Source of the DNA: Escherichia phage REP8
Strand: one strand, 5' to 3'
DNA length: 64,000 nucleotides
Sequence record: OQ174507.1
Both the position numbers and the translations under genes were made by a program. The notes under the pieces were generated by a model, which saw only the letters and a list, made by a program, of their open reading frames with translations, had not been told where the DNA came from and searched no databases. Positions 27,758 to 51,738 of this stretch are shown piece after piece (within the stretch, counting starts at the first letter, position 1; each line of letters starts with the position of its first letter).

Positions 27758-28798
27758 ATGGAGAAGTACACATTAACAAAACTTCCCGATTCAGTTACAC
27801 ATGTTTTTATTGACTCTGACAGTATTGCCTATAAAGGTGCTTGTGTAGTTGAGAAAGCAAAATATAAATATGTCAATAAACTCACAGCAGAAGAGTCTGA
27901 GCCATTTGATAATGCGAAAGATGCTGCAAGATGGTTAGCAGACCAGAGAATCCTTGTGGAAGAGCTTGGTCTGACATTTGATGAAGATGAATGGGAAAGA
28001 CAGACTTGGAAAGAAGCTAAGAGTGAAAAAGAAGCTATCATGGCTACTCAACAGGTGCTTCAGGAATGGCTTAAGGTTGTTGGTAAAGAGAGAACTTGGG
28101 TAGGTTATTTAACAGAGAAAGGTGTGCATAAACATAAAGACATTAAAGGTCTTGAGCACCAATATCAAGGGAACCGTAAAGATGCTGTCACACCAACACA
28201 CTTAGTTGCTTGTCGTGAATACCTTTTATCCAGACCAGAGTTCAAGCTGATTCTTGATGGATTTGAAGCTGACTCTATCGTTATTGCTAAAGCTGAAAAG
28301 ATGGGAAAAAAGGCTGCCTTAATGAGTATTGATAAAGACCTTCGCCAAGCTGAAGGGACTTACTGCATTGATATGACCTATGAAAAGTCGCCTTTGATTT
28401 TTATTGCTGATAACAACGTTGGTGAAATTTGGGATTGTCCAATAAAATCGACACCAAAAGCTAAGAAGACAGTTGGTGTGGGTTTTAAATTCCTTTGTTA
28501 TCAAGCTGTGGCTGGTGACAATGCTGATAATTATTTTGGTTTAAAGGGCGTTGGTAAGGCTACTGTAATGAAAGCCCTTGAAGGTAAAAATACTTATAAA
28601 GAGTGTCTTGATGCTATCTATGAACTTTATGCTAAGAAAGAGTCATACACTTATGTATCATGGGATGGTCAAACAATTACCAGAACACCTTTAGAGTTAA
28701 TGCAGCAACACTTTTTCTTAGCTTATCAGGAAAGAAATAAGAAAGACGATTTTACTTTTAAGAAATATAATTGGGAGCCGTGTATGAATGAAGATTAA
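27758..28798 (+). CDS. 5'-3' exonuclease / flap endonuclease
   Basis: Acidic-residue N-terminal domain and helix-3-turn-helix-like NYFGLKGVGKATVMKAL. Confidence 0.55.
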   Translation: MEKYTLTKLPDSVTHVFIDSDSIAYKGACVVEKAKYKYVNKLTAEESEPFDNAKDAARWLADQRILVEELGLTFDEDEWERQTWKEAKSEKEAIMATQQVLQEWLKVVGKERTWVGYLTEKGVHKHKDIKGLEHQYQGNRKDAVTPTHLVACREYLLSRPEFKLILDGFEADSIVIAKAEKMGKKAALMSIDKDLRQAEGTYCIDMTYEKSPLIFIADNNVGEIWDCPIKSTPKAKKTVGVGFKFLCYQAVAGDNADNYFGLKGVGKATVMKALEGKNTYKECLDAIYELYAKKESYTYVSWDGQTITRTPLELMQQHFFLAYQERNKKDDFTFKKYNWEPCMNED

Positions 28799-29285
28799 AG
28801 GATTTGGTAATTGCCCCACCTATGGTCATTGGGTATCTTTATGTGGGGAAGTTGACCCCACTAAACATTTTGGTTTTGTCTATTTAGTACACTGTAAGAA
28901 AACCGGACAATATTATATAGGAAGGAAACAGTTTAACAGTGTTACCAAAAGAAAAGTTGCTGGAAAGACTCGGAAGAAGGTAGTCACTAAGGAGAGTGAT
29001 TGGATGACTTATGAGACTTCTTCTGAGTATATTAAAAAAGATATTGAGAGCTTTGGAAAAGAATTTTTTGACTTTTACATTATTCAGACCTACTACACAA
29101 AAGGTGGCCTAGTTTATGGTGAAGCAAACCTTCAACATAAGTTCGATGTAATGACAAAAAGGATTGACTCGAAGCTCAGACTCTTCTACAATGCCAATAT
29201 TGCAGCAATTAAGTTTATCACTAAAGAAACTTATGAAGATGCTGAAAAAAGAATCCATAAGGTAATGAAAGCAAATTGTGCTTGA
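28788..29285 (+). CDS. GIY-YIG-like nuclease
   Basis: GFVYLVHCKKTGQYYIGRK matches GIY-(~9)-YIG spacing; overlaps 3' end of exonuclease gene. Confidence 0.4.
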   Translation: MKIKGFGNCPTYGHWVSLCGEVDPTKHFGFVYLVHCKKTGQYYIGRKQFNSVTKRKVAGKTRKKVVTKESDWMTYETSSEYIKKDIESFGKEFFDFYIIQTYYTKGGLVYGEANLQHKFDVMTKRIDSKLRLFYNANIAAIKFITKETYEDAEKRIHKVMKANCA

Positions 29286-40480: not shown

Positions 40481-41373
40481 GAGAGAAAACTATGAAAACA
40501 TCTATCCGTGTCACAATTCATTCACCGACTAAAGGAACTCACGAAGAAGAGTTTAACATCATCCAATTCCCCTCTGGTGAGATTGGTGGCCACTTTTCAC
40601 AAGAGCTTGTTGATTTTACTGCTTATGCAGCATCATCTATTAACAATGTGGTTATGATTGTAAAGGGTTATGACAAAGACACACTGTTTGCTGTGGCACT
40701 GGCTAAAGAAGCAATTGACGATTTAGTTCCTCATGATTATGCCCTGAAGACTGTCATTTTTTACTACTTGCCAAATGCACGATACGACCGTCACATGTTT
40801 AAAGGCGACGCAGCAGCTTTAAAGGTTTTTGCTAAACAGGTAAATGCAATGGGATTTGGTGCAGTCTGTGCAGTTGACCCTCACAGTTATGTACCAGATA
40901 ACCTGTTTAACTGCTTCCAAAGTATTCCTCAAAAGGAAATTGCAGTCCATTATGCAAATGACCCTCTGATTGATTACTTAGTAGCCCCAGATGCAGGTGC
41001 TTCTAAGAAGATTGCAGAGACTGCTAAAGAGGTGGATAAACCATATATCACAATGTCTAAAGTACGTAACCTTAAGACTGGTGAAATTACTGGTATGCGA
41101 ATCCTTGATGATGTTGATTTGACAGATAAAACCGTCATGATTCTGGATGATATCTGTGATGGTGGTCGAACCTTCGTAGAAGCAGCGAAACATCTTCGTG
41201 AAGCAGGTGCAAAACGTGTGGAACTTTATGTAACACATGGTATTTTCTCTAAAGGTGTTGAAAACTTACTTGACAATGGTATTGACCACATCTACACTAC
41301 AAACTCTTTAGGAGAAGCTAAAGACCGTAGCTTAACACATTATAGTCAAGTTACTGTAGCAAACCTTGATTGA
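40477..41373 (+). CDS. ribose-phosphate pyrophosphokinase-like enzyme (Prs family; candidate ADPR-PP synthetase)
   Basis: PRPP-binding motif VMILDDICDGGRT; ~300 aa; immediately upstream of NAMPT-like gene. Confidence 0.6.
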   Translation: MREKTMKTSIRVTIHSPTKGTHEEEFNIIQFPSGEIGGHFSQELVDFTAYAASSINNVVMIVKGYDKDTLFAVALAKEAIDDLVPHDYALKTVIFYYLPNARYDRHMFKGDAAALKVFAKQVNAMGFGAVCAVDPHSYVPDNLFNCFQSIPQKEIAVHYANDPLIDYLVAPDAGASKKIAETAKEVDKPYITMSKVRNLKTGEITGMRILDDVDLTDKTVMILDDICDGGRTFVEAAKHLREAGAKRVELYVTHGIFSKGVENLLDNGIDHIYTTNSLGEAKDRSLTHYSQVTVANLD

Positions 41374-41382
41374 AAGTTTATA

Positions 41383-41404
41383 GGGGCTTAAAAGCCCCAT
41401 TTTG
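41383..41404 (+). terminator. hairpin with weak T-tract (possible attenuator)
   Basis: GGGGCT-loop-AGCCCC followed by ATTTT. Confidence 0.35.
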
Positions 41405-41418
41405 AGAGAGATTAAAAG

Positions 41419-43200
41419 ATGACTAAATCACTTTATGCAGTACCAGCAGGTCTTAATGCAGATGCTTACAAGGCATCACATATATATCAGTATCCAGATG
41501 CTACGCAATATCTTATGTTGAACCTGACACCACGTAGTGATAAATGGTTTAACAGCCCCTTAGCAATTGATGGTGTAGTTGCTTTTGGTATTCAACGTTT
41601 TGTTAAAGATTACTTGATAGACCACTGGAACGCCACTTTCTTTGAACGTGATAAAAAAGAAGCAGTTGACGAAATCTTAGAAGTCATGAATGGTGTTCTG
41701 GGTAAAGATGCTATCGGTCGAGAGCATTGGGAAGCACTTCACGATTTAGGCTATCTACCAGTTGAAGTATACGCTGTAGAAGAAGGTACAGTTGTTCCTA
41801 TGCGTGTTCCAATGATTGTCTTCCAGAACACTGTTTCAGGTTTCCATTGGGTAGCAGGTTATCTGGAAGATGCTTTCTCTGCTGAGATTTGGAAGGCTTG
41901 TACCATTGCAACTATCGCATTGCACTACAAACGCATCTGTAAGAAGTGGGCTGACCTTACTTGTGACAACGACTTACATTTACCTTATCAGTGTCACGAC
42001 TTTGCTATGCGTGGTATGTCCGGCTTTACTGATGACGCATTTAATGCTGTAGGTCACTTAACCAGCTTTAAAGGAACTGATAGCTTCCCTGCTGTATATA
42101 CAGCTAAACGTATCTATGGTCAGTCTTACCCAATCTCTGATATTGGTAGTTCTGTACCAGCCACTGAACACTCTGTAATGTGTGCAAACATTGCTTGGGA
42201 AGGTGGTAATGAGTTGATTGAAGAAGAAAGACGCTTTAAAGGTGAGTTGCAAACCTTCCGTCGTTTCTTAACAGAAACTTACCCAACTGGTATTGCAAGC
42301 ATTGTTTCAGATACTTATAACTTCTGGAGAACTGTGTCAGAAATCTTACCAGCACTCCGTAAAGAGATTATGGAACGTGATGGCAAACTGGTAATTCGTC
42401 CTGACTCTGGAGACCCTGTACATATTGTCACAGGTTATAAAGCAATCCACTTAGAGTGTGCTAAAAAGGCTTATTACGAACACTTAAGCAAGCTTGAAGC
42501 CAGCGACACAATGTTGAATGCTGTTCTGAACATGAAGCTTGAAAACATCAATTATGGTATTGCTGGATGGCTACTGTCAGAAGGCTACGAAATGGTTGTT
42601 GACAGAGAAGACTTTGAAGTTGCTGATACAGTGCTGTTGAAAAACGCTTATATGGTTGGTTCTGCAAACGTTGTAACACGTCCTGTAGCTGAGATTGATG
42701 GAGCTATTAAGACACTGTACAACATCTTTGGGGGAACTATTAACTCTAAAGGGTTTAAGGTACTGGATGAGCACATCGGCCTTATCTATGGTGACTCTAT
42801 CACGTTGGAACGTGCAAACGAAATCCTGAAGCGTTTGTATGAAATGGGTTTTGCAAGCTCTAACGTAGTGTTTGGCGTAGGTTCTTACACTTACCAGTAC
42901 ATGACTCGTGACACCTTTGCATTTGCTGTCAAAGCAACTCTTGCAAGCATTGGTGGTAAAGAGATTATGCTTGCAAAAGACCCTAAAACAGATAGTGGTG
43001 TTAAGAAATCTGCTTTTGGTGGTGTAGCACCTATGTGGGATGGTGATAAGTTGAAAGCTGTAGATGGCTATGGATTCCAGAGCTTTGCAGATGTACTTGA
43101 ACATCCAGCTTGTGCTTTACGTTTAATCTTTAGCGACTCTGAGCAGTTCGGTTACACAACGCTTGGTGATATTCGAAATAATATTGACAAGCAGCTTTAA
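41419..43200 (+). CDS. nicotinamide phosphoribosyltransferase-like enzyme (NAMPT family)
   Basis: 593 aa; overall resemblance to NAMPT/NadV as recalled; paired with Prs-like gene. Confidence 0.6.
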   Translation: MTKSLYAVPAGLNADAYKASHIYQYPDATQYLMLNLTPRSDKWFNSPLAIDGVVAFGIQRFVKDYLIDHWNATFFERDKKEAVDEILEVMNGVLGKDAIGREHWEALHDLGYLPVEVYAVEEGTVVPMRVPMIVFQNTVSGFHWVAGYLEDAFSAEIWKACTIATIALHYKRICKKWADLTCDNDLHLPYQCHDFAMRGMSGFTDDAFNAVGHLTSFKGTDSFPAVYTAKRIYGQSYPISDIGSSVPATEHSVMCANIAWEGGNELIEEERRFKGELQTFRRFLTETYPTGIASIVSDTYNFWRTVSEILPALRKEIMERDGKLVIRPDSGDPVHIVTGYKAIHLECAKKAYYEHLSKLEASDTMLNAVLNMKLENINYGIAGWLLSEGYEMVVDREDFEVADTVLLKNAYMVGSANVVTRPVAEIDGAIKTLYNIFGGTINSKGFKVLDEHIGLIYGDSITLERANEILKRLYEMGFASSNVVFGVGSYTYQYMTRDTFAFAVKATLASIGGKEIMLAKDPKTDSGVKKSAFGGVAPMWDGDKLKAVDGYGFQSFADVLEHPACALRLIFSDSEQFGYTTLGDIRNNIDKQL

Positions 43201-49138: not shown

Positions 49139-49162
49139 CAGGCTCCTTCGGGAGCCTTTTTC
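49139..49162 (+). terminator. intrinsic terminator
   Basis: GGCTCC-TTCG-GGAGCC followed by TTTTT. Confidence 0.6.
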
Positions 49163-50500: not shown

Positions 50501-50701
50501 ATGGCTGACTTCTGCAAAGATTGTTCTATCGAAATGTTCGGACGTGATACAGGTGACTTAAAAGGTCTTATCACTGAAGATGACTTTAAAGCTGGCTATG
50601 TAATGCCAGTAATTTGTGAAGGTTGTGGATGTATCTGGGTAGACCACGAAGGGCAACGTGTAAAACCTTCAGAAGATAAAGAATCTTGGGAGAGATGTTA
50701 A
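50501..50701 (+). CDS. small Cys-rich (zinc-binding) protein
   Basis: CKDC...CEGCGC. Confidence 0.3.
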   Translation: MADFCKDCSIEMFGRDTGDLKGLITEDDFKAGYVMPVICEGCGCIWVDHEGQRVKPSEDKESWERC

Positions 50702-51487
50702 ATGGGTATTGTAAAAATCATCAAAGGTGATATCTTTGACGCCTTTGATAAAGGTAAATTTGATATCATTGGTCATGGTTGCAACTGTATGAATTTCATG
50801 GGTGCAGGTATTGCAGCAACTATTTCTAAGCGTTATCCAAAAGTGTATGATACTGACACAGAAGTTTACCTGTTTGCAGGTGGCATTCGTCACAAACCCT
50901 GTGAAAATTTACTGGGTAATTTCTCCGTAGCACGTTTAAAACAAGGTCGTGTAGCTAACCTTTACACCCAACTCCATACTGGTAAAGATGCCCGATACAG
51001 CGCTTTAGAGTCATCTTTGAAGAAACTTAACAGATACTGTGAAGTTAACCAGTTGAAGAAGGTCGGTCTACCTATGATTGGTGCAGGTATCGGTGGACTT
51101 GACCCTCAAGCTGTCACAGTTATCATTAATCAGGTGATGAAGAGTGTAGATGTTTATCTGTATGTCTACGAGACAGAGATGTACAACGAGTTACACTCAG
51201 GTTGGAAGAACTACTGTGAACCAGAATACTTTGCAGGTGTAGCAGTGTTCACAGATAATGCAGTTACCCTCTTCAGACGAAGACAAGGTAAGGTACATCA
51301 AAGTAACCCTCCGGTTGAAAAGATGTCTCTAAGTAACGCTCTAGTTACCCACCTGTCGAAGAGCAGTCACAGGATTGCAGTAACATTTGGCAGTGATGCA
51401 GATGCTTACATCTATGCAAGAACTGATGAGGATATCGAGACGGTTTTCTCTTCACCAGAAGTTACCTTCTTAGACGCAAAGAACTAA
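50702..51487 (+). CDS. macro domain protein (ADP-ribose binding/processing)
   Basis: IKGDIFD...DIIGHGCNCMNFMGAGIA...LPMIGAGIGGL matches macro-domain Gly-rich loops. Confidence 0.55.
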   Translation: MGIVKIIKGDIFDAFDKGKFDIIGHGCNCMNFMGAGIAATISKRYPKVYDTDTEVYLFAGGIRHKPCENLLGNFSVARLKQGRVANLYTQLHTGKDARYSALESSLKKLNRYCEVNQLKKVGLPMIGAGIGGLDPQAVTVIINQVMKSVDVYLYVYETEMYNELHSGWKNYCEPEYFAGVAVFTDNAVTLFRRRQGKVHQSNPPVEKMSLSNALVTHLSKSSHRIAVTFGSDADAYIYARTDEDIETVFSSPEVTFLDAKN

Positions 51488-51518
51488 GAAACTCTGTAAA
51501 ATATTCACAATAGACTAA

Positions 51519-51561
51519 GCCTTCCTTATCTGGGAAATCTTTCAGGTAAGGAGGGCTTTTT
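51519..51561 (+). terminator. intrinsic terminator
   Basis: 10-bp stem GCCTTCCTTA/TAAGGAGGGC followed by TTTTT. Confidence 0.4.
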
Positions 51562-51738
51562 CATTTCAGGATTGTGCAGGTAGATTTCTGTAGAGAAATC
51601 TGTAGAGAGAATTTTGAACTCCAAAGAGAAAATTCATTTTCAAACTGTGCAGGTAATCTCCAAAGAGCTTTTTCATTTTCAAAACGTGCAGAGAAAAATC
51701 AGGTCGGGCAAGAAAAATCATTTTCGAATTGTGCAGGT
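51559..51738. repeat. four ~23-bp imperfect direct repeats (iteron-like)
   Basis: TTCATTT(T)C...TGTGCAGGTA at ~51562, 51633, 51672 and 51714. Confidence 0.5.

Follow-up and report, generated by a model that had tools for sequence, protein, structure and literature searches.

The 64,000-nucleotide stretch of Escherichia phage REP8 analyzed here (OQ174507.1; hereafter the window) encodes a two-domain macro protein, a putative counter-defense enzyme, at positions 50702..51487 of the + strand. In the program-made list of open reading frames (ORFs) the gene is complete, running from ATG to TAA and encoding 261 amino acids plus the stop, at exactly the positions given in a preliminary description of this DNA. 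Residues 1-156 (50702..51169, +) form the macro domain, identified through Pfam PF01661, an AlphaFold2 (AF2) model and Foldseek; the codons of its predicted Gln-type active site lie at 50774-50776 (H25), 50783-50785 (N28) and 50969-50971 (Q90). A linker helix at residues 158-167 of the AF2 model joins it to an orphan C-terminal domain (CTD) comprising residues ~168-261 (51203..51484, +), within which a beta-rich fold of six strands and a C-terminal helix spans about residues 179-249.

Across the 3 kb around the gene, identity is 100% with Escherichia phages REP9 and REP10 and 93-95% with many Felix O1-like phages of Salmonella and E. coli. The source phage is a Felixounavirus; phages of this group find wide application in biocontrol and phage therapy directed at Salmonella and E. 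coli. The protein is 100% identical to WBY53867.1 of REP9, named 'phosphatase', and as a whole matches PHROG 335, also named 'phosphatase', with E=4e-114. GenBank records label the gene 'phosphatase', 'putative phosphatase' or 'macro domain protein', and the macro identity itself is therefore not new. What is new here is the proposed placement of the protein on the T4 Tk.4 side of its family, the recognition of a Gln-type active site, the link to the NARP1 operon of the same phage and the lineage-restricted orphan CTD.

The macro domain and its active site

The Pfam Macro profile PF01661 matches residues 25-141 with 29.9 bits (E=5.9e-7), above the curated gathering cut-off of 22 bits and far beyond chance. 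The AF2 model of the full protein, for which an alignment of 29 homologs served as input, has a predicted local distance difference test score (pLDDT) of 89.9 and a predicted template modeling score (pTM) of 0.87, and shows the three-layer alpha/beta/alpha fold of macro domains. Its best matches among solved structures are TARG1 (OARD1; 4j5s), the DarG proteins of Thermus and Mycobacterium and yeast Poa1p (6lfq), on which it superposes with target-normalized template modeling (TM) scores of 0.76-0.86 at E~1e-10 (0.83 for TARG1 and 0.82 for TaqDarG in Foldseek). A Foldseek search of the PDB returned 243 matches at E<=1e-3, and all 50 of the matches listed are macro-domain or macro-scaffold structures. 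The family profile, searched against the PDB, matched TARG1 (E=6.6e-17) and the SCO6735 structure 5e3b (E=4.6e-16). The motifs quoted in the preliminary description are present, with GDIFD at residues 9-13, GHGCNCMNFMGAGIA at 24-38 and LPMIGAGIGGL at 123-133. The ADP-ribose-binding loops, namely G9-D10, G34-A35-G36-I37-A38 and P124-x-I-G127-A-G129-I-G-G, are invariant or nearly so throughout the family. Residues 1-156 are a macro domain, and the identity proposed from these loops is borne out by profile and predicted structure alike.

A 29-sequence family alignment shows no variation at H25, G26, C29, M33, G36, A38, D52, N86-L-Y-T-Q90, P124, G127 and G129; conservation of N28 reaches at least 90% there and is complete in a 16-sequence subset. 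The ratio of nonsynonymous to synonymous substitution rates (dN/dS, omega) of the macro domain is 0.04-0.19, indicating strong purifying selection. Sequence and profile alignments place the catalytic Lys84 of TARG1 opposite Q90 and its Asp125 opposite G131. Q90 also stands opposite the Lys of the DarG-like PTK motif of PhiKZ gp104 and occupies the position of K80 in the PTK motif of TaqDarG. The protein thus lacks the catalytic residues of both TARG1, whose K84/D125 dyad is replaced by Q90/G131, and DarG, and the enzyme is predicted to be Gln-type, like SCO6735, rather than DarG-type. The HGCNC motif corresponds to HSCNC of Poa1p, including the His mutated in deposited Poa1p structures, whereas S30 of Poa1p is not conserved in the REP8 protein. 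Unlike the REP8 protein, Poa1p and TARG1 are eukaryotic housekeeping enzymes.

Published functions of related macro domains

T4 Tk.4 (AdfM, anti-DarT factor Macrodomain) is needed for the resistance of T4 to DarTG2, which ADP-ribosylates thymidine in DNA, as found by a transposon screen and a clean knockout (10.1101/2025.11.20.689424). T4 Tk.4 also belongs to PHROG 335, and T4-type Tk.4 aligns with residues 3-160 of the REP8 protein at 35% identity (E=2e-24). PhiKZ gp104, also called AdfM, strips ADP-ribose made by DarT2 from single-stranded DNA (ssDNA) in vitro, and N23A lowers this activity (PMC13309987). It shares the macro fold and the logic of a hydrolase of thymidine-linked ADP-ribose (dT-ADPr) with the REP8 protein, and its catalytically important N23 corresponds to N28; it is a Lys-type macro domain and only 24% identical. 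The name AdfM covers two macro lineages, the Lys-type PhiKZ gp104 and the Gln-type T4 Tk.4, the latter sharing PHROG 335 with Adpp.

A Gln-type enzyme with activity on DNA is known from bacteria. SCO6735, a member of the ALC1/TARG1 class, has Gln85 in place of the catalytic Lys. It removes thymidine-linked ADP-ribose from DNA, and it can rescue cells from DarT; its Q85A mutant is inactive and N27S nearly so (PMC9411070). A Gln-type site is therefore competent for dT-ADPr hydrolysis. Q85, N27 and H24 of SCO6735, a Gln with conserved Asn and His, correspond to Q90, N28 and H25 of the REP8 protein. Alignments via TARG1 provide this equivalence transitively for Q85 and N27, and for H24 it follows from sequence register only. 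SCO6735 is an orphan without a cognate DarT, as the REP8 protein appears to be. SCO6735 differs in being bacterial, SOS-regulated and single-domain, and its Lys-bearing mobile loop is extended by 5 residues relative to the short loop of the REP8 protein, in which K95 is present. Val25 of SCO6735 (Val/Ile, whose backbone places the catalytic water) is replaced by Gly26, although the backbone carbonyl could still serve.

The second function of the family was described for Adpp of Vibrio phage Gary, which converts ADP-ribose (ADPR)-1''-phosphate, the product of the RES-domain defense aRES, to ADPR and so lets NARP1 rebuild NAD+ (10.64898/2026.01.28.702374). Purified Adpp converts ADPR-1''-phosphate, Adpp is required for NARP1-AP to defeat aRES, and H24A is the mutant built for the assay in which mutation of Adpp abolishes anti-defense (10.64898/2026.01.28.702374). 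Gary Adpp shares 89.8% identity with a homolog in Vibrio phage Quinn whose gene is flanked by 'PRPP synthetase' and 'NAMPT'. In a tblastn search of a phage collection the Quinn protein matched 2,717 records and the REP8 macro protein 2,812. Among the Quinn matches listed are T4 at 34% identity and ~88-kb E. coli and Erwinia phages of the Ounavirinae at ~30%. These matches indicate that T4 AdfM, Adpp and the REP8 macro protein belong to one large family of about 2,800 phage records, or about 5% of the collection searched.

Two counter-defense roles, anti-DarTG2 and anti-aRES, were thus given to this family within three months in separate preprints. The AdfM passages of 10.1101/2025.11.20.689424 and of PMC13309987 and the Adpp Results, Discussion and Methods of 10.64898/2026.01.28.702374 do not mention the respective other function. 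The preliminary description had suggested either reversal of DarT-type ADP-ribosylation or processing of NAD breakdown products, and both have been shown for PHROG 335 homologs, Tk.4/AdfM and Gary Adpp. Its macro identity stands and its functional interpretation is supported, but it was hedged and made no choice between them, and it missed the CTD at residues ~168-261.

Two further functions of the macro domain were considered. Some macro domains, macroH2A and the sensor domains of ThsA among them, only bind their ligand. The REP8 protein could in principle likewise bind or soak up ADP-ribose without catalysis, or have a structural or regulatory task, its macro domain serving ligand recognition only. 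H25, N28 and Q90 are, however, the equivalents of residues required for catalysis in SCO6735, Adpp and PhiKZ AdfM. They are kept in 44-45 of 45 near-full-length bacterial homologs (Q90 and N28 in 45/45, H25 in 44/45) as well as in the family alignment (H25 and Q90 without exception, N28 to at least 90%), and the omega values given above are low, which makes this explanation very improbable. A different ADP-ribose conjugate as substrate is unlikely but less remote. Candidates are uracil- or phosphate-linked ADP-ribose on RNA, protein-linked ADP-ribose made by a host or phage ADP-ribosyltransferase (ART), O-acetyl-ADPR and ADPR-derived immune signals such as glycocyclic ADPR (gcADPR) or His-ADPR of Thoeris. 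TARG1-class enzymes including SCO6735 also remove ADP-ribose from RNA uracil and proteins (PMC13036486, PMC9411070), and a survey of viral NAD and ADP-ribose systems made the case for small ADPR derivatives as the main targets of phage macro domains (PMC9503650). Against this, no member of the family has been shown to do so in a phage context, and the functions with experimental backing are counter-defense against DarTG2 and aRES. A phage-encoded ART balanced by the macro domain was rejected, none being annotated in the REP9 genome, in which part of the hypothetical ORFs were profiled.

Signatures that separate Tk.4 from Adpp

To choose between the two described functions, we compared the REP8 protein with T4-type Tk.4, 11 diverse NARP1-embedded Adpp proteins (Table S1 of 10.64898/2026.01.28.702374), metagenomic phage homologs and bacterial homologs. 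The short-loop (Tk.4) and Adpp signatures used below were derived in this analysis and have no published definition. The REP8 protein, other Ounavirinae and Tk.4 share HGCNC, which reads HGANC and QGCNC in two Ounavirinae members, NLYTQ and a spacing of three residues between the Gln and the Gly or Pro that follows. This spacing equals that of TARG1, which acts on thymidine-linked ADP-ribose in DNA (PMC13036486), and that of PhiKZ AdfM. The loop after the Gln is 4-7 residues longer and aromatic-rich in all 11 Adpp proteins, 10 of which also read H[QV]xN and 10 of which carry Gly, Ala or Ser instead of Thr89. None of these three Adpp features is found in the REP8 protein. The loop after the catalytic Gln is a candidate specificity determinant.

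BLAST scores point in the same direction, with mean values of 82 bits for Tk.4 (81-83 bits for T4 and Shfl2 Tk.4), 61 bits for Adpp and 57 bits for Gary Adpp. A neighbor-joining (NJ) tree contains an Ounavirinae clade (74% support) beside the Tk.4 group. By its active-site and loop signatures the Felixounavirus protein is placed on the Tk.4 side of the family, and the signatures, the BLAST scores and the lean of the tree together favor an AdfM-like over an Adpp-like role. Two other discriminators were uninformative. Charge does not separate DNA-directed from metabolite-directed enzymes, the macro cores of Ounavirinae being basic (isoelectric point ~9) and T4 Tk.4 and PhiKZ AdfM acidic. Co-occurrence with NARP1 is uninformative within the Ounavirinae, since the whole subfamily appears to carry NARP1 as well as the macro gene.

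Common to the REP8 protein and T4 Tk.4 are PHROG 335, three motifs (HGCNC, NLYTQ and P.IG.GI.G) and the short loop that follows the Gln. The annotation of neither the REP9 genome nor the T4-like Tk.4 locus examined includes a DarT. They differ in architecture, Tk.4 being a single domain of ~155-160 amino acids and the REP8 protein having 261 with an extra folded domain of ~95. NARP1 is found in REP8, and in T4 it is unreported in either preprint, with no T4 Namat among the matches listed; the anti-DarTG2 phenotype has been shown only for T4. Gary Adpp has a homologous Poa1p-like macro domain, its H24 corresponds to H25 within HxCNC, and both phages encode Adps and Namat. Identity is about 29% (57 bits), however, and Adpp has HQCNC, NVYGQ and a loop that is ~7 residues longer (QYHWHAHKVAPG). 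Its gene lies between adps and namat and has no C-terminal domain, whereas the REP8 gene lies 14 genes away in another transcription unit.

We therefore favor, with a probability of about 0.45, an AdfM-like counter-defense role in which the protein would be a Tk.4-type orphan antitoxin that removes ADP-ribosyl-thymidine from phage ssDNA. Several points weigh against this assignment. Three Ounavirinae members score higher with their best Adpp-type match than with Tk.4, and the deep nodes of the NJ tree have bootstrap values of only 13-21%, for which reason the tree was used as a lean. Identity to Tk.4 is only 35%, and the evidence on function for short-loop members is genetic, from T4 and one preprint. 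SCO6735 acts on DNA despite its long loop, so loop length is no proven determinant of specificity. A literature search for the sensitivity of Felixounavirus to DarTG2 yielded no data. Finally, REP8 encodes NARP1, and the apparent co-occurrence of macro gene and NARP1 across the Ounavirinae would fit an Adpp role equally well.

Bacterial genomes, scanned with a 5-sequence alignment as query, yielded 51 loci, which belong to Verrucomicrobia, Cyanobacteria, Hyphomicrobiaceae, Planctomycetes and other groups. The near-full-length matches are 30-37% identical, and most of the loci encode small proteins of ~150-180 amino acids, with a few longer ORFs. They read HGCNC...NAYTQ and have a long aromatic loop after the Gln, like phage Adpp. 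A tblastn search found no DarT within 4 kb of them, a weak test made with a single P. aeruginosa DarT2 probe.

The NARP1 operon and a possible Adpp-like role

The NARP1 NAD+ reconstitution operon of the window lies at 40492..43200 (+), 7.5 kb upstream of the macro gene on the same strand. It consists of the PRPS-like Adps (40492-41373, +; Pfam Pribosyltran/Pribosyl_synth) and the NAMPT-like Namat (41419-43200, +; Pfam NAPRTase/NAMPT_N), each 38% identical to its counterpart in the Vibrio phage NARP1-AP operon. NARP1 was discovered and validated in the Felixounavirus Bas63 as genes 79-80 (10.1101/2024.02.11.579819). Judged by these similarities the REP8 phage carries NARP1, and the NAD+ metabolism genes mentioned in the preliminary description are this pair. 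GenBank names the two genes 'ribose-phosphate pyrophosphokinase' and 'nicotinamide phosphoribosyl transferase'; as Adps and Namat of NARP1 they would catalyze other reactions than these public names describe. A third apparent NAD gene, the 'NAD synthetase' of REP9 at 28788-29285 (+), is actually a SegE-type GIY-YIG homing endonuclease (PF19835, E=1.7e-28), and its misannotation makes the phage look richer in NAD genes than it is.

The presence of NARP1 in the same genome leaves an Adpp role of the macro protein open. The protein could act as an ADPR-1''-phosphate phosphatase, as its sole or as a second activity. It would turn the product of RES-domain NAD+ phosphorylases (aRES) into ADPR for the phage's own NARP1, which would amount to a NARP1-AP pathway with its phosphatase supplied in trans. 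It belongs to the same PHROG 335 family as Gary Adpp, the Gary H24 is conserved as H25, HGCNC matches HSCNC of Poa1p, and NARP1 is in the window and validated in the congener Bas63. Full-length macro+CTD protein was found in 257 phage records and Namat at >=60% identity also in 257, which need not be the same records. These counts suggest that macro+CTD and Namat are both core genes of the Felixounavirus/Mooglevirus/Suspvirus group. According to the Adpp preprint, aRES occurs in E. coli, Klebsiella and Enterobacter, and 15% of NARP1 phages have a macro gene inside the operon (10.64898/2026.01.28.702374).

The location of the gene speaks against this role. The gene stands 14 genes (~7.5 kb) downstream of NARP1, past rIIA/rIIB and at least one terminator-like site, and belongs to a different transcription unit. 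It falls outside the definition of that paper, which counted only macro genes <=2 genes from NARP1 (10.64898/2026.01.28.702374). Table S1 of NARP1-associated macro proteins in that preprint contains no Felixounavirus. The protein also lacks the long aromatic loop (11/11 Adpp), H[QV]xN and the Gly, Ala or Ser in place of Thr89 (10/11 each), has its lowest score with the Adpp actually tested, that of Gary (57 bits), and groups with Tk.4 from T4, for which NARP1 is unreported. An Adpp-like or dual function is a serious rival, though less probable than the AdfM-like one. Both reactions break the bond at C1'' of the distal ribose, which would make a single active site for the two chemically plausible. 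With its Tk.4-type active site and its NARP1 operon, the REP8 phage lends itself naturally to asking whether the two roles share a single active site and what sets specificity.

An orphan C-terminal domain

Residues 157-261, searched with phmmer against 1.84 billion representative proteins, gave only two matches, both within the protein's own family, and the domain has no further PHROG or Pfam match and no relatives by fold. All 27 IMG/VR loci found with a CTD profile (contigs of 51-91 kb) have it fused in the same ORF to an HGCNC/NLYTQ macro domain. The dN/dS of the CTD is 0.08-0.63, compared to 0.04-0.19 for the macro domain, and identity to homologs is 12-86% in the CTD tail and 44-90% in the macro domain. 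The CTD is a real domain under purifying selection that evolves faster than the macro domain, and as a lineage-restricted orphan it is the part of the protein that lies outside existing knowledge. In a 12-sequence alignment the only invariant CTD columns are Pro174, Gly179 and Tyr236 (P18, G23 and Y80 in CTD numbering). None of them is polar, which argues for a binding or structural rather than a catalytic role.

Erwinia phage vEam_PM_27 (Kolesnikvirus) has an orthologous macro gene of 260 amino acids that follows spanin genes (L005:2498-3280, +). The ~100-residue tail of the Erwinia Ounavirinae protein has the same length as the CTD but no detectable homology to it (hhalign probability 0.3%) and was thus either replaced or has diverged beyond recognition. 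The C-terminal module appears to be hypervariable or exchangeable across the Ounavirinae. A fusion with T4 Tk.3 as the source of the CTD was rejected because BLASTP produced no alignment, and a relationship to the aRES inhibitor aRad1 because neither blastp nor hmmsearch gave a signal; no aRad1 homolog was found in the window.

DarG also has a second domain after its macro domain and shares with the REP8 protein the macro fold and dT-ADPr hydrolase logic. By analogy with this two-domain logic, and given the faster evolution of the CTD, one may speculate that the CTD binds an effector or targets the protein to DNA, and the CTD is accordingly a candidate for a new module of effector binding or targeting. 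The macro half is matched by DarG models with E~1e-14. The DarG equivalog NF048014 scores 53.6 bits against a cut-off of 250, with only positions 2-152 of its 338 matching, and the PADLOC DarG model matches at positions 5-147 of 329. The REP8 protein does not show the hallmarks of DarG, a C-terminal DarT-binding domain together with an adjacent darT. An independently evolved, two-pronged factor similar to DarG, in which the Gln-type macro domain would erase dT-ADPr on DNA, ADPR-1''-phosphate or both and the CTD would bind and neutralize DarT2 or an aRES-type NADase or tether the protein to replicating ssDNA, is a decidedly unlikely elaboration. If true, one Felixounavirus protein would link defense by DNA ADP-ribosylation with the NAD+ economy of NARP1.

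Proposed mechanism of the AdfM-like enzyme

We infer the following substrate, catalytic mechanism and CTD role for the preferred AdfM-like assignment, in which the two-domain protein would act as a counter-defense enzyme. Early expression is probable, judged from its block position with rIIA/rIIB alone. Its macro domain, of the Tk.4/Adpp family, would bind ADP-ribose and cleave the attachment at C1'' of the distal ribose. The active site would be formed by His25, Asn28 and Gln90, where DarG and TARG1 use a Lys or a Lys/Asp pair. As in SCO6735, Asn28 would hold Gln90 and Gln90 would position the distal ribose, with catalysis probably proceeding via water and not through a covalent lysine intermediate. 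The likeliest substrate would be ADP-ribosyl-thymidine placed on single-stranded phage DNA by host DarT2, and as an orphan antitoxin like T4 Tk.4 the enzyme would keep phage DNA replicable. The CTD of ~95 amino acids, restricted to this phage lineage, would serve binding or targeting and have no catalytic part. Should the protein prove to be just one more AdfM, the gain is an ordinary improvement of its annotation from 'phosphatase' or 'hypothetical protein'.

Genomic neighborhood of the macro gene

The macro gene and its neighbors, among them rIIA, rIIB and spanin genes, form a block that runs in one direction. Immediately upstream, a 66-amino-acid Cys-rich ORF (50501..50701, +; CKDC...CEGCGC) ends in a TAA that is directly followed by the ATG of the macro gene. 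Its two Cys pairs possibly form a zinc ribbon, and it has no Pfam match. ESCO45, typing phage 1 and Mooglevirus ESh20 show the same arrangement and spacing. A terminator-like hairpin of 19 pairs followed by a T-run (51517..51558, +) was located by a consensus scan 30 nucleotides after the stop of the macro gene, which indicates that the macro gene ends its transcription unit. The preceding terminator-like site in the same scan is at 49140-49157.

The 370-bp gap between the terminator of the macro gene and the next ORF contains four direct repeats of ~34 nucleotides at 51552-51736 (+), with the core TCATTTTCAAANNGTGCAG. An Rfam search of the repeats and the downstream intergenic region gave no meaningful match, returning just a sub-threshold miRNA-precursor match to the terminator hairpin. 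The TCATTTTCAAANNGTGCAG repeat pattern has 3 matches, where chance predicts 0.06, and is confined to this part of the window; the repeats may constitute an operator or promoter array.

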